Sequence record: NC_102531.1
Direction: 5' to 3' (one strand)
Origin: a phage
Length of the DNA: 64,000 nucleotides
Shown: one piece after another, positions 1,804 through 33,333 of the stretch
How the letters are laid out: each line of letters begins with the position of its first letter
Numbering within the stretch: position 1 is the stretch's first letter
Notes under the pieces: model-generated
The model's database searches: none
What the model was told of the DNA's origin: nothing
What the model saw: the letters and a program-made list of their open reading frames with translations, nothing else
Program-made: the position numbers and the translations under genes

Positions 1804-2988
1804 TTAAGCTTTAGCCAAAATGGCGCTAAACTCTTCACCAAACTCTTTTACAATCTTCATCAGGTTTGGGTATGCTTTGATCAGCTGAGCAACAATCTTG
1901 TCACGCCCTTTACCGATAAGCAAGGCATTTCCTAAGGCATTAGGTTTCATCATCGCCATAAAGACTGAGAATACAAAATCTCGGTTCTCGTCCTTGAAGT
2001 TTTCCCAAAGGAAATCGAGGAAGTTTGCCACGCAGCTGACAAGATCTTCGTCTGAGATACTTGCATTTTCCATCATATTACGAATAGCGATACAACCTTC
2101 AGATCCAAGAATCCACAAAATGTCTGGCTGCTTAGGACCTACGTATTCTTTGCAGCCACCTGCCATAATCCGACCGATTTCCGGTAAATTGCGTTTCTTG
2201 GTGTGGTATGTCCAGATCTCTACCGCTGCAGTGTGACCAATAGCACCTTGCAGAAGAATACGGGACATAGCGTCAGAAATAATACCGCTGTCAAAATCGT
2301 GCAAGATGTCAGATGCAGCAACCCAAGATCGTGGTGTGGCAAAAGATGGACAATTAATCTCAGCCATAGCCTCATAATTATCAATAGCTGATGGAACTCT
2401 TTTCAGATACCCAATTACAGAGGAGTGAACCCCGTTGAGGAATGCGTAGTCCTCAATAAACACCTCTGCATTGCTTGTAACCTCTACAATGATAAAGCGG
2501 TTAGCCAGAGGGGCTTCGAGCGCCGAAAGAACCGCACCATCTGTAGAACGGTTACCCGCAGCCACAAAAACAGAACCCTTAGGGAATGCATAGGTGCCGC
2601 ACTTGTGGTCAAGCATAATTTGCATTGCAACCTTTTGCAGGTAGTTATCTGCATGAGTGAGCTCATCCAGAAAGATAATTCCGCTCCAGTCAGGATCCGC
2701 AGGCCAAAATTCTGGAATTGCAAACACTGTACGTGTAGTTCCATCCGCTTCTACAGGGATAGGTAGCCCAGATAAGTCGGCAGGATCTTTATCTGACAGT
2801 CGCACGTCAACAAGGTTGTCATCTCGCTCACCGAACATATTATCAGCGATCTGCTTCATCACCTGGCTTTTACCCACACCCATTGGTCCCAAAATTAGGA
2901 CAGATCGGCTATGACGTTGGGCAAACTGAATAATAGCTGGCAACTCACGGACAGTGATTTGACCACTTTCGAATACGTTTCTTGACAT
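1804..2988 (-). CDS. MoxR-like AAA+ ATPase (AAA_5/CbbQ-type)
   Basis: 394 aa. Walker A GPMGVGKS, Walker B IIFLDELTHA, single AAA core with C-terminal extension. Family assigned from motifs only. Confidence 0.65.
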   Translation of the reverse strand: MSRNVFESGQITVRELPAIIQFAQRHSRSVLILGPMGVGKSQVMKQIADNMFGERDDNLVDVRLSDKDPADLSGLPIPVEADGTTRTVFAIPEFWPADPDWSGIIFLDELTHADNYLQKVAMQIMLDHKCGTYAFPKGSVFVAAGNRSTDGAVLSALEAPLANRFIIVEVTSNAEVFIEDYAFLNGVHSSVIGYLKRVPSAIDNYEAMAEINCPSFATPRSWVAASDILHDFDSGIISDAMSRILLQGAIGHTAAVEIWTYHTKKRNLPEIGRIMAGGCKEYVGPKQPDILWILGSEGCIAIRNMMENASISDEDLVSCVANFLDFLWENFKDENRDFVFSVFMAMMKPNALGNALLIGKGRDKIVAQLIKAYPNLMKIVKEFGEEFSAILAKA

Positions 2989-3684: not shown

Positions 3685-3942
3685 TCAGTCCACCTCTTCT
3701 TCTCGTTGTAGTTCAAGATACCCGTAGGTCTGGACATCTTGAAGGGTGTGGAACTCCCCCTCTGCCGCTAAGGCACGAACAACTTGGCACAAAACCTTAT
3801 GAGGAACTTCATCCAAACCTAGATTCAGTGCAGGAAACACCTTATCTAAGTCAACAAAATAAACGAACTGTAGCTCACCAGCTTCAAAAGGTGTATCTTC
3901 AATAAACATCTTCTCGGCATTAGTCAAGATCTGCACTTTCAT
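3685..3942 (-). CDS. hypothetical protein (85 aa)
   Basis: ORF track; start overlaps stop of upstream gene at 3942. Confidence 0.45.
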   Translation of the reverse strand: MKVQILTNAEKMFIEDTPFEAGELQFVYFVDLDKVFPALNLGLDEVPHKVLCQVVRALAAEGEFHTLQDVQTYGYLELQREEEVD

Positions 3943-4298
3943 TATTCTACCTCCTCTTCTTTTTCTTCGGCATTAGTTTCATGGCTACTCCACTCGGGAG
4001 TTTCTACCTCGACAGTAAACTCACGCACTACACGGTAATTGCCCATGAAGCGCTCTACTTCGTCAAGGCTTATGGAGAGGCCATTGGCAACCAGGTCTGC
4101 AGCACCCTCTTCTACCAGGTAGTCCAGATTGGCTTCCAGAGCCTCAGGTTCAAACCCTGTCAATGCAATCAGATAACCTTCCCCTTCATCAGGGAGGACA
4201 ATACAGCCCAATTGATTTTCTTTAAAAAGGCAGTGACCATCATTATTGATTGGGTGTTCATTGCAGTAAATAGCTGCACGATAAGTAACTTTAGACAT
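3942..4298 (-). CDS. hypothetical acidic protein; start inside a 29-bp inverted repeat
   Basis: ORF track 3942..4319; ATG at 4298 has SD AAGGAGA 8 nt upstream, giving MSKVTYRA... First codons lie inside the repeat shared with 6137..6165. Confidence 0.45.
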   Translation of the reverse strand: MSKVTYRAAIYCNEHPINNDGHCLFKENQLGCIVLPDEGEGYLIALTGFEPEALEANLDYLVEEGAADLVANGLSISLDEVERFMGNYRVVREFTVEVETPEWSSHETNAEEKEEEVE

Positions 4299-4311
4299 CG
4301 GTAAGGTCTCC

Positions 4312-4590
4312 TTAGGCAATTGTCATTTTACATTCTTGAAATTTTAACACAAGACGGTGATTGTGTCTAGTGTCTAAAAAGATTTTTTCAACCATCAGGC
4401 ACACGGTATAACCGTCCATCTTGTTGACAACAAAATCTCCAGGATGAGGGAGGATGTCTCCCGGATTGGGGAAACATAGTCCACTCAGAAAGGCATCGTC
4501 AGTGGTGGACTTAATAGATTTCCACACACTGTCTGCCTGAACATGTTCGCCGACGTAATATACATTACCACATGCCTTCATCATAGTCAA
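4312..4590 (-). CDS. hypothetical protein (92 aa)
   Basis: ORF track; start overlaps stop of the 4587..5486 gene. Confidence 0.45.
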   Translation of the reverse strand: MTMMKACGNVYYVGEHVQADSVWKSIKSTTDDAFLSGLCFPNPGDILPHPGDFVVNKMDGYTVCLMVEKIFLDTRHNHRLVLKFQECKMTIA

Positions 4591-5486
4591 ACCCTCGCAT
4601 AAATTAAACTTGTATCAGTATACTTCTTTAATGGGTAAATATCCTGTCCATAGATGCAATCATTAAACACCTCATCTACCCAAAGGCTACACTTATATCC
4701 CATCATTTCTAAAACACCCATCTCTTCTTCGGTAAACTTATCACCGCTCTTGCAAGATGTCAATACCTCATTCTGAACTCTTGCTACCTCGAAGCGGTTA
4801 TTGGCAATATCGCTATTGGCGATCAAATACTCACCTAGAGGGTGTGCGGCATTAAAGATGCACAGTGGACGGCTGACGTAATAGTCTCCGGGTGTATAAA
4901 AATTGTTGAGGTCTTTCACTAGAACATTCTTATCAGTCACTTCATTTATAACATCATGCATATCGCACATCTTTATATGTTTGAGGATTCCATCCCCCAT
5001 CACAAAATAAAAACTTGCTGAGACACTTTCGGCATAGATCTTACTAGATCCGTTGTAGTTGTATTTTACTCGGATGCTAACGGGGGTTTTTCCTGTCGCG
5101 TTAGCCATCATCCAAAGAAATGGCAGCTCATACTTCTCCTCTGAGGAAACAAAAGGTGAGGTAGCCAGAGATCGAAAACCTCCAGAGAAGTTGAAAGTTA
5201 CAGAACCGCTCCGGCGGTATGATACCGCGTATTCTACTTTTATATCGACGTACCCATTGGAATAGGTGTGTCCTTCATTATCTAAATATGTCCACTTATC
5301 AGACCCAGATACCAATCTACGCTCAATAACCTTCATCACTACAGGAATTAGTGGGTTGGTACAAACCGCTTTTGAAGTAGCTTTATCATCTAAAGCCTCG
5401 TAAATTGCAGAAAGGATGTCCCCAGCTGAAAGATTGGTTGTTATGTCCTGTTTCCACCGCGTACTAAAACTGTTAAGATTTGCCAT
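4587..5486 (-). CDS. hypothetical protein (299 aa), first gene of minus-strand early operon
   Basis: ATG at 5486 with SD AGGAG 9 nt upstream and a sigma70-like promoter further upstream. No recognisable domain. Confidence 0.55.
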   Translation of the reverse strand: MANLNSFSTRWKQDITTNLSAGDILSAIYEALDDKATSKAVCTNPLIPVVMKVIERRLVSGSDKWTYLDNEGHTYSNGYVDIKVEYAVSYRRSGSVTFNFSGGFRSLATSPFVSSEEKYELPFLWMMANATGKTPVSIRVKYNYNGSSKIYAESVSASFYFVMGDGILKHIKMCDMHDVINEVTDKNVLVKDLNNFYTPGDYYVSRPLCIFNAAHPLGEYLIANSDIANNRFEVARVQNEVLTSCKSGDKFTEEEMGVLEMMGYKCSLWVDEVFNDCIYGQDIYPLKKYTDTSLIYARV

Positions 5487-5526
5487 AAGTAAGTGCTCCT
5501 ATGTTAGTTTTCTTTCGAATGGGTGC

Positions 5527-5555
5527 ACTATATTGTGGAGTTAGAGTAAAGTCAA
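5527..5555 (-). promoter_or_regulatory. sigma70-like promoter for minus-strand operon
   Basis: Minus-strand reading: TTGACT (5555..5550), 17-nt spacer, TATAGT (5532..5527), then leader with AGGAG before ATG 5486. Confidence 0.5.
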
Positions 5556-5568
5556 CACGTTTTTGATG

Positions 5569-5597
5569 TTGACATCTGTTGAGACAATTGATACGAT
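5569..5597 (+). promoter_or_regulatory. sigma70-like promoter for plus-strand operon
   Basis: TTGACA 5569..5574, 17-nt spacer, TACGAT 5592..5597. Lies inside the TTG-initiated N-terminal extension of ORF 5563. Confidence 0.45.
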
Positions 5598-5628
5598 TTC
5601 TTCACTTACAGAGCACGAGAGACGACTC

Positions 5629-6606
5629 ATGAATCTTGAAAAATATTATACACCAGAAGAGTTAGAGCGCTTGCTCAAAAAATATAGACGCAAACAGAAT
5701 AACGCACGGAAACGAGATATAGAGTTCGACCTGTCATGGGAAGAATACCTCCTATTTGGTAAAAAACTTTTAGGAGATGGAGTATGCGACTATACCCTTA
5801 TACCTTTTGACATGCACACAGATGAAAACGGGCTGGGAAATCCTTTCTACCCATCTCTGGAGCGGATAGATGATGAAGGTCCTTATGCGGTTGATAACTG
5901 TTGTGTGGTGGGATTGAGATGCAACTCTCTAAAGGACTGTCTGGTAGATAAAAAGACTGCAGTCTTGATTAAAGACGAAACTGATCGAAAAATTGTCCAG
6001 CAGATGATGCTCCACCTGAGCGAAGAGCGTATGGAGAAATTGAAAGGTGATTATACTTTTGAAGATTTCATCTTGCAATATGGAACGGAAGAGGATAAAC
6101 TAGCACTCTTTGACGAAGAAGAGGAGGAAGATATGCTACCGATGTCTAAAGTTACTTATCGTGCACCCAAGAAGCACATTTCCGACATTGTAAACGAGCC
6201 TATCACAGAAGAGATTGAAGAAATGACGCAACAGGTGCATGAAGAGGAAAAAGAGACTCAGGAGGTCGAAGAGGAGCTTACAGAAGAGGTTCCTGCACTA
6301 CCTGATGATGTTGAGATTGCCAAAGCTTACACTTTCTATTGTCAAACGTTCTACGATGTAGGTATGAAAGTTGATCTGTCGTTCAGCCAATTTAAGAGTT
6401 CGTATATTCGCAAATGCTGTGCTTTAACTGGTGAACGTCTTGAAGCTGGACTTAAACCTCTGTTGGTGACCGACTGGAATAAAGGTTTCACTAAAGGAAA
6501 CTTTATGGTAGTATCTCCAATTATGGAGAAAGCTATGACAGATCTTATGAAGACCACCCGCATGACAATGACCGAGTTGGCAGGTATTTTCAAACACGTT
6601 AAATAA
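5629..6606 (+). CDS. HNH-like (His-Me finger) domain protein with acidic linker
   Basis: ORF track 5563..6606 (TTG start); ATG 5629 lies downstream of the promoter. Motifs CDY...DMH...SLERID...NCCVVGLRCNSLK; second half starts MSKVTYRA inside the 29-bp repeat. Confidence 0.4.
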   Translation: MNLEKYYTPEELERLLKKYRRKQNNARKRDIEFDLSWEEYLLFGKKLLGDGVCDYTLIPFDMHTDENGLGNPFYPSLERIDDEGPYAVDNCCVVGLRCNSLKDCLVDKKTAVLIKDETDRKIVQQMMLHLSEERMEKLKGDYTFEDFILQYGTEEDKLALFDEEEEEDMLPMSKVTYRAPKKHISDIVNEPITEEIEEMTQQVHEEEKETQEVEEELTEEVPALPDDVEIAKAYTFYCQTFYDVGMKVDLSFSQFKSSYIRKCCALTGERLEAGLKPLLVTDWNKGFTKGNFMVVSPIMEKAMTDLMKTTRMTMTELAGIFKHVK

Positions 6607-6639: not shown

Positions 6640-8100
6640 ATGGATAGCAGAAGTTCAGAAATCATTGCCTCGCAGAAAGATGATGCCCTGAGAATGTTGC
6701 AGGCTGCACGTATGTATCTCCTTGAAAAGCTGCCGTTCTATGGCACACTACTGTCAGGGTTGCAGTTCGTAGAAAACCACACATGGTGCTCCACCATGGC
6801 AACCGACCATAAACGCATCTATTACAGTCCTGAGTTCATTATGGGATTGGCTGATGAACGCAAGGCTATTCTTAAGGCTTCTCTAACTGACGAGCAGTTT
6901 GAGATGGCTGAAGTTTTCTATTCCCCAAAATCTGTGAAAGAGGTGGCCTTCCTTCTGTCACATGAGGTGGGGCATATTATCTGTGATCACCTAGTCCGTG
7001 GTAAAAGCTTTGAGCCGGAACTGTTCAATATTGCTTGTGATCACGTTATCAACACAGGCCTTGTGGTTGACTTTAGCAAACCTCCTTGTGTTTTCTTCCC
7101 GAAGGGGAAAAGCACTACGTTCGTGAAAGGTAAGCCTTTTGGCTTCTTAGCCAGCTGCTACTGCGACATGAAGTTTCATGGATGGATTGCTGAGAACGTT
7201 TATGCAGTTCTTGATAAGCAAAGAGATCAGAATAACGGTAAAAGTAAGAACGGTAAAGGTGAGAACTCTCAAAGTGATAAGCGACAAACCGATGATCACA
7301 TGAGTGGGAACGGTGGCACCAATGATAATCTTGGAAAGGCTATGGGGTATGATCAGCCACAACCTGTAATCAGCCAATCTGATAAAGATCAGGCCATGCA
7401 GGACTCTGGTGATATGCTGGAGGCAGCAATGCAAGCGTCCGGAGGCCGTTGCCCTGAGGCGGTGCGTGAGTTTGTCAAGAACAGAGGTAAACCTGTAATC
7501 AACTATATAGACATCATTAAGCAACGCATGTTGTCTAAAAGAAAGGCCGAACTGACCTACAGAAAACCTGGTCGCCGATCTGGGTCTTTGACCAGCACAA
7601 TGCGAAAAGTTGGGGCTATAAACAAGAACCAGCACGTTATTGTTCCTGGTCGTAATCCGGAAAACACTATAGATATTGTGGTGGCTTTAGACGTTTCTGG
7701 CTCGATCTCTCAAAGAACTTTAAAGAAAATGTTCAATGAAATCACCGGATTGTGCAATCTGTATAAAGAGTTTAAGGTTACAATGTTCTGTTGGTCAACT
7801 GAGGTTGGAGAGGTTAAAGTATACACTCGCGGCAACATAGACGAGATGATCAACTATGAGGTCCACTCAACATGGGGCACAACAGCTGCTTGCGTGTTCG
7901 AGTATCTGGATGCCAACATACCTAATGCAAAAGATGTCATCGTCCTGACCGACCTATACTTTGAGCATAACTTTGAACAAAAGGTTGTTGACAACAAGTG
8001 GAAAAAGTACGATACTCTATGGGTCCTCACTGAGGGGTATAATAAAAATTATATCCCGAGCTTTGGGAAAACTGTGGAATTAATCGAGTACGCTAAGTAA
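6640..8100 (+). CDS. vWA-domain protein with N-terminal HExxH putative metallopeptidase domain (DUF2201-like)
   Basis: ORF track 6619..8100; ATG 6640 has SD GGAG 5 nt upstream. N-terminal PFYG...TMATDH...LSHEVGHIICDH...FNIACDHVIN; C-terminal MIDAS-like DVSGSIS. Long Asn/Gly/Ser/Asp-rich linker. Confidence 0.6.
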   Translation: MDSRSSEIIASQKDDALRMLQAARMYLLEKLPFYGTLLSGLQFVENHTWCSTMATDHKRIYYSPEFIMGLADERKAILKASLTDEQFEMAEVFYSPKSVKEVAFLLSHEVGHIICDHLVRGKSFEPELFNIACDHVINTGLVVDFSKPPCVFFPKGKSTTFVKGKPFGFLASCYCDMKFHGWIAENVYAVLDKQRDQNNGKSKNGKGENSQSDKRQTDDHMSGNGGTNDNLGKAMGYDQPQPVISQSDKDQAMQDSGDMLEAAMQASGGRCPEAVREFVKNRGKPVINYIDIIKQRMLSKRKAELTYRKPGRRSGSLTSTMRKVGAINKNQHVIVPGRNPENTIDIVVALDVSGSISQRTLKKMFNEITGLCNLYKEFKVTMFCWSTEVGEVKVYTRGNIDEMINYEVHSTWGTTAACVFEYLDANIPNAKDVIVLTDLYFEHNFEQKVVDNKWKKYDTLWVLTEGYNKNYIPSFGKTVELIEYAK

Positions 8101-8115
8101 GAGAGGAGGTTATTT

Positions 8116-8379
8116 ATGGCAACAGAGTTAAAATTTGCATCAAACCGTAAAACTAAGAAGTATCTGTCCTCAGTAGCTCCAGGCACTGTGGTGATGTTTG
8201 TTGATGAACTTGGGGATGTGAATACAGCACTTGTTGTAAAATCACATCCTGCAAACATATATGTTGGGGTATTTGACCTGTTCAGAAAGGTGTTTGTAGA
8301 ACTACCTCACAGTTTGGTTGTTACAGAAATGGATGCCTGCATAGAAATTCTTGGCGAAGTTATGGTGGAGGAACAATAA
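8116..8379 (+). CDS. small protein, paralog 1 of a tandem four-gene family
   Basis: 87 aa; SD GAGGAGG upstream; shares MAT..F.S..K.KK...GTVV...VK...FDL...LP...VTE.D..I.ILGE pattern with the next gene. Confidence 0.6.
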   Translation: MATELKFASNRKTKKYLSSVAPGTVVMFVDELGDVNTALVVKSHPANIYVGVFDLFRKVFVELPHSLVVTEMDACIEILGEVMVEEQ

Positions 8380-8642
8380 TGGCTACCAGCATTGTATTCA
8401 ATTCTAAGGTGAAGAACAAAAAGCGTGCAGACAGCTTTCCGTGTGGGACCGTGGTAAGTTGCGACGGAGACGGCATTCAAAACATAGTTATGATTGTCAA
8501 AACAGGAGAACATTGTGTGTGGGGGTTCGATTTAGAAAATAATGAGTTGTACGATCTGCCACCAAACATGAAAGTTACAGAGCTTGACACCAAAATTACC
8601 ATCCTTGGAGAGACAAGCTATTCAAAAGAAGGAGGAGAATAA
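8379..8642 (+). CDS. small protein, paralog 2 of tandem family
   Basis: 87 aa; TAATG stop/start overlap with paralog 1; SD GGAGGAA upstream. Confidence 0.6.
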   Translation: MATSIVFNSKVKNKKRADSFPCGTVVSCDGDGIQNIVMIVKTGEHCVWGFDLENNELYDLPPNMKVTELDTKITILGETSYSKEGGE

Positions 8643-8905
8643 TGACCACAAAAATCACTATCGCAGAACCGAAAGCTAACACTCAACCTATCGAAAAGTT
8701 TAAGTGCGGTGAGGTGGTAACATTCACACCAGATAATGAAGATGCTAAGATTTTCGCAATGGTCACAGCTGAGTGGATGTGTGACAACACCACACAGGTT
8801 CTGCGTTTTGACACCTATCTTACCGATGAAATCAGGAACGACAAGATTGTGACTGGTGTGGATACTGAGATTGTTTTCTACAAGAGCTTTTTAGAGGGTT
8901 TCTGA
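8642..8905 (+). CDS. small protein, paralog 3 of tandem family (more diverged)
   Basis: 87 aa; TAATG overlap; KFKCGEVVTF and RFDTYLTDEI...VTGVDTEIVF align to paralogs 1 and 2. Confidence 0.55.
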   Translation: MTTKITIAEPKANTQPIEKFKCGEVVTFTPDNEDAKIFAMVTAEWMCDNTTQVLRFDTYLTDEIRNDKIVTGVDTEIVFYKSFLEGF

Positions 8906-20347: not shown

Positions 20348-20358
20348 TTACCCTCTTT

Positions 20359-21402
20359 TTAAGCATAAGATATAGTGATCCATTGACCATTTACAAGTTT
20401 TTGGATAGCACCTGTCCAGTAATCACCTTGATAAGGGTGTTTATAAGCGTAGTTACCAGAGCACATCACATGTCCAGGGTAGACTCTTGACTCTCTGTAG
20501 GTGGTTTTGAAACGGTTTGCTATCCTTACATCATCAACACCTCTGCTGGGCATAGGGATAGTAAGGTTACCACTACCGTCTGCGCTGTTACCATTTACCC
20601 TACGGACCACGTTTCTTCCACCAACTGTTGCATATTGGCCCCTGACGGTTTCATCGTTACAATCAACTCTTCCACCTATTTGAGCGCTTCCGCAGGATTG
20701 TTGTCCGTTAACAGTGGCTCTTGGTATCGTAACTGCATTGGCATTTGCAGAGGAACTTTTTGCGTCGTTGCATTCAAGATTTCCTTGGATAGCCAGTCTT
20801 GCACGGTTGGCAGTTATAGCATTGAGCTTCATAGCTGAAAACACAGGCTGCCCACCAGAAGGTTGAAATCTCCAACGGAACCCGTCTATTTGGTGAGAAG
20901 GATCATCAAGATCTGTGCCGTCAGCACCACCGATGTTGTCCATAATCCAGAAATCCATCATCGTCTTGTCTGAGGTTATGGTGGTATATATTGCCGCACT
21001 GTCTGTTGACGCAGATGCAAACTCGATTCTTTGGAGACCTAAAGTTTGAGTCTGAATCATTATGTCTCCAGACTTGTCAACATATAGATCGTCCATTTCT
21101 TCAGGTGAATATACATTGAGAACTTGACGTGCAGCAGCTTTGTCTGGAACGTCTGCTAGATTATTAGTGACCCTTAAGAATCTATTATCCCATCCTGGGA
21201 CAACATCTTCTGTTAAATGCTTTAACCACGCAGAAAGCATGTGAAGTTCAAAGTTAACAACTTCACATGCCACTCTTTGTGTCATATCCCAACCTTTCAA
21301 TCTCTCTTCTTTTTTTGGTTGAGACTTATTCAATTCTCCCGTATTTTCAAGCACAACATCCTGATTGGCCCAAATATCAAGAGGGATAACTGGTTTAGTC
21401 AT
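20359..21402 (-). CDS. tail fibre protein, paralog B (347 aa)
   Basis: Shares N-terminus (M.KP..PL.IWA..D.VL.NT) and C-terminus (QKLVNGQWIT.SYA) with 22417..23457; central region diverged. Confidence 0.6.
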   Translation of the reverse strand: MTKPVIPLDIWANQDVVLENTGELNKSQPKKEERLKGWDMTQRVACEVVNFELHMLSAWLKHLTEDVVPGWDNRFLRVTNNLADVPDKAAARQVLNVYSPEEMDDLYVDKSGDIMIQTQTLGLQRIEFASASTDSAAIYTTITSDKTMMDFWIMDNIGGADGTDLDDPSHQIDGFRWRFQPSGGQPVFSAMKLNAITANRARLAIQGNLECNDAKSSSANANAVTIPRATVNGQQSCGSAQIGGRVDCNDETVRGQYATVGGRNVVRRVNGNSADGSGNLTIPMPSRGVDDVRIANRFKTTYRESRVYPGHVMCSGNYAYKHPYQGDYWTGAIQKLVNGQWITISYA

Positions 21403-22402: not shown

Positions 22403-22416
22403 GCTAGTCCCCCGAT

Positions 22417-23457
22417 CTATGCATAATTAACAGTGATCCATTGACCATTTACAAGTTTTTGTAAAGGTCCTGCCCAGTAAGTTGAACCACGCATCTCTTT
22501 TTTGTCACCGAAATGCCAGCCTGTGACAACGTAGCCGTTGCGGATTGGGGATTCAGAAACGCCGTCCACAAGTCTTGCACCGATTCTGATGTCTTGCACA
22601 CCTGTCTGCGGGATGGTGATCGTTACATCACCGTTACCGTTAGCCGTCACTCCGTTCACAGAGCGAACCACATTTCTGTTACCGACAACACAGTGCTGGC
22701 TTCTTACAACCATACTGTCACAACTTGCACCACCATTAACATATACTGACCCAGCCGTCAATTGACTAGCCACATTACAGTTGGTGAATGTTGCTGTATT
22801 GCTGATAGTAAGGTTATTACACCTCATGTTATCGACAACTTCAACATTGCCTACCACTTTCAACAGCGCACGGTTAGCCGTGATCGCGTTAAGGTACATC
22901 AAAGTGAACTCTGGATTAATATCCGGCTGAGTTGGCTGGAATCTCCAACGAAACGCATCTATTGTAGATGTGCCACCATCATCAAACGACCCAATATTAT
23001 CACTTAACCCAAAGTCGAGAGTTGTCTTATCTGGGCCAATAGTTGTCTCTATCCAAGCCTTATCTGTATCGGCAGCTTTAAAGTTGATACGTTGCAAACC
23101 CAATGGGCCTGTCATTGTATCACCTGTAACTTTTACATACCTGGCGTCTGCCTCTTCCTTAGTAATAATCCCAAGGTTTCTACGGGCAACAGGGATGTTC
23201 AAAAGATCACTCAAGTTATTATCACGTACCAGATAACGGCCTTCTTGAGCGGGGATCTGCTCGTCAGCAATGTATTTTGCCCAAGTTCCGAGCATATTGA
23301 AAATATAGTTAAGTTCTTCACATGAGGGCTTTTGACCAAGATCCCAACCTTTTCTCCACAAATCATCAATCGGGCGTAGCCTGTTCTGTCTGTGGGTGTT
23401 AGGCAGAACCTGATCCTCCTCTGCCCAAATCTCTAATGGAAAACTAGGTTTTGACAT
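22417..23457 (-). CDS. tail fibre protein, paralog A (346 aa)
   Basis: See paralog B; C-terminal ...QKLVNGQWITVNYA resembles P2 gpH-type fibre tips (from memory, not searched). Confidence 0.6.
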   Translation of the reverse strand: MSKPSFPLEIWAEEDQVLPNTHRQNRLRPIDDLWRKGWDLGQKPSCEELNYIFNMLGTWAKYIADEQIPAQEGRYLVRDNNLSDLLNIPVARRNLGIITKEEADARYVKVTGDTMTGPLGLQRINFKAADTDKAWIETTIGPDKTTLDFGLSDNIGSFDDGGTSTIDAFRWRFQPTQPDINPEFTLMYLNAITANRALLKVVGNVEVVDNMRCNNLTISNTATFTNCNVASQLTAGSVYVNGGASCDSMVVRSQHCVVGNRNVVRSVNGVTANGNGDVTITIPQTGVQDIRIGARLVDGVSESPIRNGYVVTGWHFGDKKEMRGSTYWAGPLQKLVNGQWITVNYA

Positions 23458-27730: not shown

Positions 27731-27810
27731 GTCACTCCTCCGGTATGAAAATCTCTACAAGGTATTTTACCAAATTTTGTAACAATAGTCAATCTGAGCA
27801 TAAAAATAAA

Positions 27811-27826
27811 CCCCGCCGAAGCGGGG
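27811..27826 (-). terminator. rho-independent terminator, UUCG-tetraloop hairpin
   Basis: Exact ccccgccgaagcgggg copy (same 16-mer as at 1385), A-run on plus side; directly downstream of the 27836 stop. Confidence 0.5.
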
Positions 27827-33242: not shown

Positions 33243-33315
33243 TGTGCCTCCAGGTTAAACAATCATGATAGCTATTTTACCAGATTTTGAGTTAATACGC
33301 AATACAAACAAAAAG

Positions 33316-33333
33316 CCCCCGCCGAAGCGAGGG
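33316..33333 (-). terminator. rho-independent terminator, UUCG-tetraloop hairpin variant
   Basis: cccccgccgaagcgaggg (one-base variant of the 16-mer at 1385 and 27811) with A-run on plus side; downstream of the 33341 stop. Confidence 0.45.

Follow-up and report, generated by a model that had tools for sequence, protein, structure and literature searches.

A perfect 29-bp inverted repeat linking gp008 and gp011 of a Vequintavirus genome: the probable scar of a templated copying event

The DNA analyzed here is a 64-kb stretch of phage sequence (64,000 nucleotides, record NC_102531.1; hereafter the window) that belongs to a Vequintavirus (rV5-like) and is 99.8% identical to Escherichia phage LL12. 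The locus under study consists of genes gp008 to gp011 and the two arms of an inverted repeat, arranged as follows.

3942..4298, minus strand: gp008, 118 aa, PHROG 12908 (open reading frame list, LL12 annotation CPT_LL12_008, PHROG E=1e-79)
4275..4303, minus strand: left arm of the repeat, donor; 5 nt of 5' leader and the first 8 codons (MSKVTYRA) of gp008
4312..4584, minus strand: gp009, 90 aa, between the arms (open reading frame list, LL12 annotation, PHROG search)
4587..5486, minus strand: gp010, 299 aa, annotated 'putative alpha 1-3 fucosyltransferase', between the arms (open reading frame list, LL12 annotation, PHROG search)
5555..5527, minus strand: sigma-70-like promoter match TTGACT-17-TATAGT (consensus scan, pattern match only)
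5569..5597, plus strand: sigma-70-like promoter match TTGACA-17-TACGAT (consensus scan, pattern match only)
5629..6606, plus strand: gp011, 325 aa, Srd/HNH-like (PHROG 3118 at E=7e-113; weaker Srd and endonuclease VII family matches)
6136..6172, plus strand: clustered differences of gp011 from the ancestral linker (DNA alignment, 18 loci)
6137..6165, plus strand: right arm, derived patch, probably templated; (L)PMSKVTYRA in the gp011 linker, residues ~170-179

The divergent promoter matches together span 5527..5597, in the gp010/gp011 intergenic region. No Pfam domain was detected in gp006 to gp011, and gp012 shows metallopeptidase and VWA domains alone. gp011 begins with an endonuclease VII/HNH-like N-terminal region, continues with an acidic linker and ends in a C-terminal region that is conserved. 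The linker is variable among homologues, with indels, and is probably disordered: AF2 pLDDT is ~27-31 across residues 160-224, in a model (mean 51.5) whose confidence is too low for a fold search and which served here only as evidence of an unstructured or unmodelled linker. No solved structure was related in sequence to gp011. An internal duplication within gp011 was discarded because its N-terminal and C-terminal halves, compared by BLASTP, showed no significant similarity (E=1.5).

Exact search of the 64-kb window with the 29-mer TACCGATGTCTAAAGTTACTTATCGTGCA returned just two matches, at 4275-4303 on the minus strand and 6137-6165 on the plus strand, and no third copy was present in the window with up to 3 mismatches allowed. 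The pair is the top inverted repeat of the window, with 100% complementarity and 1833 nt between the arms, and its only perfect long repeat; all other inverted-repeat pairs are at most 90% complementary. Chance is excluded for the arms by their 29/29 nt identity together with the lack of any match in 100 dinucleotide-preserving shuffles. gp008 has its annotated start at the left-arm ATG (4298-4296), and the right-arm ATG at 6142 is Met172 of the 325-aa gp011. Each arm, read in the frame of its local gene, gives L-P-M-S-K-V-T-Y-R-A, and in this way two unrelated proteins, gp008 and gp011, share an identical 10-residue peptide. Between the arms lie gp009, gp010, the intergenic region with its back-to-back promoter matches and the first ~170 codons of gp011. 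A sequence-only reading had described a perfect 29-bp inverted repeat, both copies of which hold an ATG and MSKVTYRA, the left at the gp008 start and the right at an internal methionine of gp011, and which brackets ~1.8 kb with two minus-strand genes and divergent promoters; the repeat, the peptides and the layout all proved as described.

Among related phages the two arms differ in distribution. The left arm, at the gp008 start, was found in all 115 related GenBank records (those matched by a 35-nt probe), with 0-2 mismatches in 21/21 relatives fetched. The right arm was found in just 27 of the 115 (25 phages): 27 records carry two copies, 88 the gp008 copy only and none three, and the gene set of the 88 is unchanged. 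In every patch-lacking relative fetched (14/14) the gp011 linker is 12 nt longer (DMSPMQDFKNFMADRAANKH) and encodes DMSPMQDFKNFMA(D/N)R(A/G)ANKH. The same longer linker type (MTPAQELREFMEKRAEKH) occurs in gp011 homologues at 64% identity, and MSKVTYRA is absent from those at 55-59% identity. On the gp008 side, the first 24 nt of the coding sequence are the most conserved stretch of the gene in a MAFFT alignment, with variable third positions numbering 0/8 there versus 38/119 gene-wide, a synonymous conservation suggesting that the donor sequence matters for initiation. Even a distant gp008 homologue that begins MSKVCRAMIY (in L023; start MSKVCRAMIYINEKP) keeps the motif MSKV..RA. An exact match to the repeat was found neither in IMG/VR nor in a GTDB genome scan; among JGI/ENA metagenome contigs two vequintavirus contigs matched, with parental flanks only. 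These comparisons establish the polarity of the presumed change, with the gp008 start as donor and ancestral sequence and the gp011 linker as recipient.

All patch-bearing genomes examined carry identical private flanking bases and, on this alignment evidence, the patch has a single origin. The linker allele of the window is unusual beyond the patch as well, being at most 89.5% identical to any non-patch allele, whereas the flanking parts of the gene are 95-98% identical. The arms have since drifted apart separately in ECP32 (2 nt) and nomine (1 nt). Leader positions vary independently in the two arms across genomes, and no covariation of the arms was seen at the -1 position (G/A/T).

Alignment with the longer linkers reveals a clustered change, in which a ~41-nt stretch is replaced with a net loss of 12 nt and multiple substitutions, and the flanks differ by scattered single changes. 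Read on one strand, the new sequence is the reverse complement of the arm at the gp008 start over 29/29 nt, and the gp008 copy is unchanged. Microhomology to the donor is present at both junctions in rV5-type and in FV3-type linkers. The rV5-type ancestral linkers share ACCGATG (7 nt) and ATCGTGCAGC (10 nt) with the gp008 start, in the same frame, and the FV3-type linkers share ACC(A/G)ATG and ATCGTG/AGC with it. Written in blocks, the ancestral gp011 linker reads …GATATGTCACCGATG-caggattttaaaaatttcatggctg-ATCGTGCAGCC… and the gp008 start, on the opposite strand 1.8 kb away, …TTACCGATG-tctaaagttactt-ATCGTGCAGCT…. The linker comparison establishes that these flanking microhomologies were in place before the putative copying event. 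Two-block inverted microhomologies are common by chance (12 in the window, 4-9 in shuffles) and, at 4-12 such matches per 64 kb, the ancestral 7+10-nt similarity needs no special explanation.

Three substitutions at or near the junctions, C6136, C6166 and G6172, are private to the patch allele, and neither the donor nor any ancestral allele sampled provides a template for them; at 6136 and 6166 the window departs from a base that donor and ancestral linker have in common. Judged from the alignment, these bases must be later point mutations or junction errors, the former being plausible since every non-patch allele differs from this linker allele by 10% or more. A search of the window for a second donor of the untemplated junction bases (CACCCAAGAAG, GATATGCTACC) gave chance-level 9-10-mers only. 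A slip to CACCCAA, 18 nt further into gp008, was also considered and dropped, as it adds only ~1 informative base.

Collectively, these data make it likely that a single templated copying event, in an ancestor of a Vequintavirus sub-lineage, left the right arm as its scar. The ancestral gp011 linker and the gp008 start, 1.8 kb apart, would already have made up a weak inverted repeat with imperfect arms. As DNA was replicated or synthesized in repair, a growing strand may have annealed at one microhomology to the complementary sequence of the gp008 start, copied ~13-30 nt from it and returned through the second microhomology. The predicted outcome is that a ~41-nt linker stretch was replaced by gp008 sequence with a net in-frame loss of 12 nt, that the linker changed from SPMQDFKNFMADRAAN to LPMSKVTYRAPK, and that the imperfect inverted repeat became perfect. 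The change was presumably tolerated because it fell in a variable, probably disordered acidic linker, and the patch allele would then have spread among related phages via ordinary homologous recombination, as its occurrence in the diverged backgrounds of inoa and ECP32 suggests. The sampled alleles do not include the immediate pre-patch allele, and the ancestral linker used here is that of relatives; the pre-patch form of the window's own allele is envisaged as PITEEIEEMTQQVHEEEKETQ / …PITEEIEEMTQQVH… with MSPMQDF…. We infer that the patch is neutral and that the route was either a polymerase template switch or short-patch ectopic gene conversion. A hairpin-type intramolecular switch across 1833 nt is, by analogy, unlikely, and a cross-fork or repair-synthesis switch must therefore be assumed. 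Among the possibilities raised by the sequence-only reading was a recombination footprint, which the lineage-specific, derived character of the gp008-start copy in the gp011 linker bears out. The repeat is best read as such a recombination or replication footprint; nothing found suggests a regulatory site or a DNA switch.

Template switching at quasipalindromes makes them perfect, or more nearly so, and produces clustered substitutions in coding DNA (PMC7202029; PMC8604942). Such mutation is credited in PMC7202029 to Ripley 1982, as first noted in T4 rIIB and yeast CYC1, and has been studied in E. coli reporters (PMC7202029) and yeast coding genes (PMC8604942). The gp011 patch shares with these cases the conversion of an imperfect into a perfect inverted repeat in one step, a substitution cluster with an indel whose new bases match the other arm exactly as its reverse complement, an intact donor arm, microhomology at both junctions and a change of several adjacent residues. 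It differs in scale. The arms are separated by 1833 nt, compared with a few nt up to the ≤70 nt surveyed; the yeast survey sought events at spacers of ≤70 bp only, with shorter spacers favored (PMC8604942). The copied tract, with ~13 new nt and 29 nt of identity, exceeds the arms of 11-16 bp in the yeast survey. In its working the event thus matches a template switch, but its spacer is not that of the classical quasipalindrome type; with a fold-back hairpin implausible, the growing strand would have to switch to the sister strand, to another strand or, in repair synthesis, to an ectopic partner. Break repair by error-prone synthesis offers a second parallel, in ectopic short-patch gene conversion and in template switching mediated by microhomology (bioRxiv 10.1101/2023.08.09.552703), and long-range template switches are mentioned in PMC7954356. 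Like those events, the present one involves a short tract from a non-allelic site at kilobase distance, very short homologies and an intact donor; unlike them, it is read from sequence, which shows neither a break nor a dependence on recombinase nor the context of repair. The 7- and 10-nt flanking homologies are well below the presumed need of RecA- or UvsX-type strand invasion.

The repeat does not reveal a new biological system. Its value is as a natural phage case of templated mutation for which comparative genomics fixes the donor, recipient, ancestral state and junction microhomologies. The reach of such events can be ~2 kb, from one strand to the other, and one of them can rewrite a dozen codons in a single step, leaving unrelated proteins with an identical 10-residue peptide. 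In genome scans they can pass for regulatory sites or for the ends of mobile elements, and they can make substitution rates or signals of positive selection look higher than they are.

Several other explanations of the repeat were weighed. That the arms are terminal inverted repeats of an IS- or MITE-like element carrying gp009, gp010 and the promoters verges on the untenable. Perfect inverted repeats do surround a 1.8-kb segment, but no transposase or other Pfam domain was found in the enclosed genes, there is no target-site duplication in the sequence flanking the arms (…aaatagc | cccaaga…), and both arms lie inside coding frames, with the first half of gp011 included in the segment. The segment is also syntenic in every relative, among them distant ones that lack the right arm, and the mobile-element reading is on this comparison already contradicted. 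An invertible segment (4304-6136), with the arms serving as sites for site-specific or homologous recombination, is extremely unlikely. Inversion would fuse the gp011 N-domain to the body of gp008 and place the gp011 C-domain under expression from the gp008 start, and since the perfect, inverted arms are each read in the same frame by their own gene, translation could run on across either recombinant junction. The Mu G and P1 C segments likewise work through inverted repeats within coding sequence and, as in the Hin/Gin/Cin/Pin systems, inversion here would swap protein parts in frame. In contrast to those systems, no invertase gene was found in the window and no alternative orientation was seen in any genome, the repeat lacks conservation across the genus, and none of the enclosed genes is an alternative C-terminal cassette. 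The repeat-bearing phages all align as a single collinear piece (25/25), metagenome contig L025 shows parental junctions only, and a gp011-gp008 chimera was found in 0/21 protein homologues. A Pfam search gave no recombinase domain or signature in gp008-gp011, and the best tblastn match in the 64-kb window to a Mu Gin query had E=1.1. Most relatives lack the repeat (no right arm in 88/115 records), and a length of 29 bp is poorly suited to homologous recombination. The earlier suggestion that the repeats are ends of an invertible or mobile segment is accordingly not upheld: collinearity extends over all the repeat-bearing phages and one metagenome contig, relatives without the right arm still have the 1.8-kb segment, and the comparison of related phages showed no inversion.

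Another reading is that the patch was kept by selection. The copied gp008 initiation region would have become an internal start in gp011, yielding a separate C-terminal domain possibly co-regulated with gp008 by a factor that recognizes the shared 29 nt, which we consider quite improbable. In its favor, the sense sequence is the same on the gp008 and gp011 mRNAs, ATG included, a GAGGAGG run precedes ATG 6133 by 5 nt and ATG 6142 by 14 nt, the start of the gp008 coding sequence is unusually conserved, and the patch allele has persisted and reached diverged backgrounds. On the other side, 88/115 related records have the same gene set and no patch, and the gp008 Shine-Dalgarno is not part of the copied tract. 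The SD-like run consists of Glu/Asp codons of the acidic linker and is present (GAGGAAGAT) in patch-lacking alleles too, and the Met is not conserved in more distant homologues (PA for PM in P0015 and P0016). RNA fold z-scores of -1.33, -0.43 and -0.05 disclosed no stable or shared structure, Rfam gave no match at E ≤1, and the arms diverge separately at leader positions. T4 RegA targets are translational operators common to several phage mRNAs, and the present arms resemble them in placing the same sequence over an AUG on two mRNAs; they differ in that the second site is internal to an open reading frame, lineage-specific and lacking conserved structure or a candidate binding protein. The coding part of the left arm is conserved and the right arm is missing from most relatives. 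A shared translational operator or RNA-binding site, as the sequence-only reading had also proposed, is thus disfavored by the absence of the right arm from ~3/4 of related genomes of identical gene content, by the independent drift of the arms in ECP32 and nomine, and by the lack of significant RNA structure or an Rfam match. Taken more broadly, a non-neutral patch, acting either as a working internal gp011 start co-translated or co-regulated with gp008 or through rare part-swapping inversion via the in-frame repeat, is very unlikely; if true, templated mutation would have made new gene expression logic in one step. Closer to the favored copying event is the improbable alternative that the patched linker was imported by recombination from an unsampled phage, itself the site of the copying event or of a gp008-like gene fusion. 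The 29/29 identity of the patch to Vequintavirus's own gp008 start and the clear homology of both patch flanks to Vequintavirus gp011 speak against import and mean that a short templated copy in a vequintavirus-like genome would still be required; the import reading alters where the event happened, not its nature. In its favor are the divergence of the window linker outside the patch, set against the closer flanking gene parts, and the mosaic exchange of the allele evident in inoa and ECP32, where the patch allele sits within backgrounds 85-95% identical elsewhere.

The 29-bp inverted repeat reported by the sequence-only reading was confirmed: TACCGATGTCTAAAGTTACTTATCGTGCA occurs at 4275–4303 (minus strand) and 6137–6165 (plus strand), with 1833 nt between the arms, and exactly two copies are present in the window. 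No further window matches were found allowing up to 3 mismatches, and 100 dinucleotide-preserving shuffles yielded 0 matches. A whole-window search returned this pair as the only perfect long repeat, with other inverted pairs being at most 90% complementary. Both copies also encode MSKVTYRA as proposed, each arm reading L-P-M-S-K-V-T-Y-R-A in the frame of its local gene. The repeat is real and non-random. The locus is 99.8% identical to that of Escherichia phage LL12, whose gene numbers are used here (LL12 position minus 1116 equals window position), and the 119 records matching it are all rV5-like Vequintavirus phages. Its features are as follows.

3942–4298, minus strand: gp008, 118 aa, PHROG 12908
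4275–4303, minus strand: left arm, a 5-nt leader plus the first 8 codons of gp008
Between the arms: gp009, 90 aa
Between the arms: gp010, 299 aa, labelled 'putative fucosyltransferase', no Pfam match
Intergenic region between the arms: back-to-back sigma-70-like promoter matches
5629–6606, plus strand: gp011, 325 aa, PHROG 3118 ('HNH endonuclease')
6137–6165, plus strand: right arm, gp011 residues ~170–179, in an acidic stretch

The arms enclose the first ~170 codons of gp011. Weaker family matches of this protein are to Srd anti-sigma and endonuclease VII, and a Pfam search of it detected no domains. The acidic stretch around the right arm is variable, with indels among homologues, and a poor AlphaFold model predicts almost no secondary structure there (pLDDT ~27–31). 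Product names for gp011 disagree between records (anti-sigma factor, HNH endonuclease, anti-termination protein, type II restriction endonuclease), and some records place its start 21 codons further upstream, giving 346 aa; a predicted plus-strand promoter (5569–5597) falls within this extension. The adjacent gp012 (6640–8100, plus strand) is named 'HNH endonuclease' by RefSeq and PHROG; Pfam assigns it a DUF2201_N putative metallopeptidase domain and a VWA-like DUF2201 domain. Together with a MoxR-type ATPase at 1804–2988 (minus strand), it resembles a MoxR/VWA pair.

Loci were taken from 21 relatives spanning 90–99.8% identity. The left arm was present in all fetched relatives with 0–2 mismatches; the right arm occurred in only 7 genomes of the set (LL12, FFH2, inoa, ECP32, nomine, MiataMamis and the window itself). 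Across the whole phage collection, a 35-nt probe matched 115 records at 142 places, of which 27 records (25 distinct phages) carry two copies, 88 the gp008 copy only, and none three. Relatives without the right arm have an intact gp011 with a linker 12 nt longer, reading …EEDMSPMQDFKNFMA(D/N)R(A/G)ANKHISDIV… where the patched form, bearing the 29-nt copy, reads …EEDMLPMSKVTYRAPKKHISDIV…. Protein homologues of 62–64% identity also have the long linker type (MTPAQELREFMEKRAEKH), and MSKVTYRA is absent from gp011 homologues of 55–59% identity. A contig from one member of this distant group encodes a gp008 homologue starting MSKVCRAMIYINEKP. Because relatives and homologues have patch-lacking linkers and gp008 starts this way even in a distant phage, sequence comparison clearly shows MSKV…RA to be ancestral to gp008 and the gp011 copy to be derived.

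Several database records at this locus were anomalous. Sixteen 'UNVERIFIED: Campylobacter phage' entries (MG0656xx, e.g. MG065662.1), with Campylobacter jejuni as listed host, are 92–99.6% identical here to E. coli rV5-like vequintaviruses; probably the host label is wrong or the isolates were contaminated. Phage V18 has a 976-nt, out-of-frame gp011, the YP-6 annotation splits gp008 into two short CDSs, and APCEc02 product names seem displaced by one gene, with gp011 bearing the 'fucosyltransferase' label. These oddities are likely sequencing or annotation errors.

The earlier suggestion of a recombination footprint proved essentially right, with a derived gp011 copy of single origin in a minority of relatives. 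We consider it quite probable that the repeat records a single act of templated copying, by which gp008 start sequence entered the gp011 linker in a minority vequintavirus sub-lineage. The stretch between two microhomologies in the linker was exchanged for donor gp008 sequence, the signature of templated mutation in which the two arms of an imperfect inverted repeat become fully matching.

Junctions of the proposed copied tract (all rows sense strand)
Donor gp008: left ggagaccT; core TACCGATG TCTAAAGTTACTT ATCGTGCA; right GCTattt
Window gp011: left gatatgC; core TACCGATG TCTAAAGTTACTT ATCGTGCA; right CCCaaga
rV5-type (patch-lacking) gp011: left gatatgT; core cACCGATG caggattttaaaaatttcatggctg ATCGTGCA; right GCCaaca

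The ancestral rV5-type linker and the gp008 start share ACCGATG (7 nt) and ATCGTGCAGC (10 nt), in inverted orientation and the same reading frame; FV3-type alleles have ATCGTG/AGC in place of ATCGTGCAGC. Such two-block inverted microhomologies number 12 in the window and 4–9 in shuffles; since they are frequent by chance, the ancestral quasi-repeat needs no functional explanation and is merely the substrate at hand. C6136 and C6166, just outside the 29-mer, and G6172 differ from the donor and every sampled ancestral allele, and a search of the window for a second template for them found none. The first is synonymous (donor TTA to CTA); the others replace Ala by Pro and Asn by Lys. Outside the patch, this linker allele differs by 10% or more from all non-patch alleles, so later point mutations suffice to explain these bases, which may instead have arisen as junction errors; the original tract may have extended up to 32 nt. 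Private junction bases are identical in all patch-bearing genomes examined, which indicates that the patch arose once. Its presence in inoa and ECP32, whose remaining background is only 85–95% identical, shows subsequent passage by homologous recombination.

Precedents for templated mutation that perfects imperfect inverted repeats are quasipalindrome template switching (PMC7202029) and the homogenisation of inverted-repeat arms in yeast coding genes (PMC8604942). The yeast survey covered only spacers of ≤70 bp and found shorter ones favoured (PMC8604942), whereas the phage arms lie 1833 nt apart. At this distance a nascent-strand hairpin is an unlikely intermediate, and another route must be assumed: candidates are a switch across the fork, a switch during repair synthesis or short-patch ectopic conversion. 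The mutation type is already known, with the 1.8-kb arm distance its main unusual feature.

The sequence-only reading had also proposed ends of an invertible or mobile segment. Neither was supported. The 25 repeat-bearing genomes all aligned collinearly in a single piece, only parental junctions occur in a 137-kb human-gut metagenome contig, and no gp011–gp008 chimeras occur among 21 database homologues. We detected no recombinase domain in gp006–gp012, no Gin-like match within the 64-kb window, and neither a transposase nor a target-site duplication at the bracketed segment, whose genes occupy syntenic positions in all relatives, distant ones among them. A shared translational operator or RNA-binding site fared no better: the right arm is missing in about three quarters of relatives, RNA fold energies are unremarkable (z −0.05 to −1.33), Rfam gave no match, and arm identity is not maintained, with 2 mismatches between the arms in ECP32 and 1 in nomine. 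It is very improbable that the patch gave gp011 a working internal start or provided a substrate for in-frame inversion. GAGGAGG does lie upstream of the internal Met of gp011; it is part of a Glu/Asp codon run with a counterpart in patch-lacking alleles, and homologues further away do not conserve the Met.

Among 22 genomes, the 5' 24–29 nt are the most conserved nucleotide stretch of the gp008 CDS. Its first 24 nt (4275–4298, minus strand) contain 1 variable site, where the average over the gene is 4.6 per 24 nt; of their third positions 0 of 8 are variable, versus 38 of 119 gene-wide; the 5 leader bases directly upstream are variable. A role of the donor sequence in gp008 translation is mildly favoured by this pattern, which probably reflects ordinary translation-initiation constraint and is uninformative on the gp011 copy.

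Other duplications were noted in the window. Three abutting plus-strand 87-aa genes lie at 8116–8379, 8379–8642 and 8642–8905; the first two are paralogues (39% identity, E=1e-12), and the third, taken from the LL12 annotation, is presumed a member from its equal length there. A G+C-rich hairpin, CCCCGCCGAAGCGGGG, follows an A-rich run at 1373–1400, 27799–27826 and 33305–33332 (a direct-repeat family) and resembles an intrinsic terminator used repeatedly, with the minus strand as the strand read. The 72-nt stretches 20351–20422 and 22409–22480 lie 2058 nt apart and form a direct repeat with 81% identity, probably because two paralogous genes share a conserved block.
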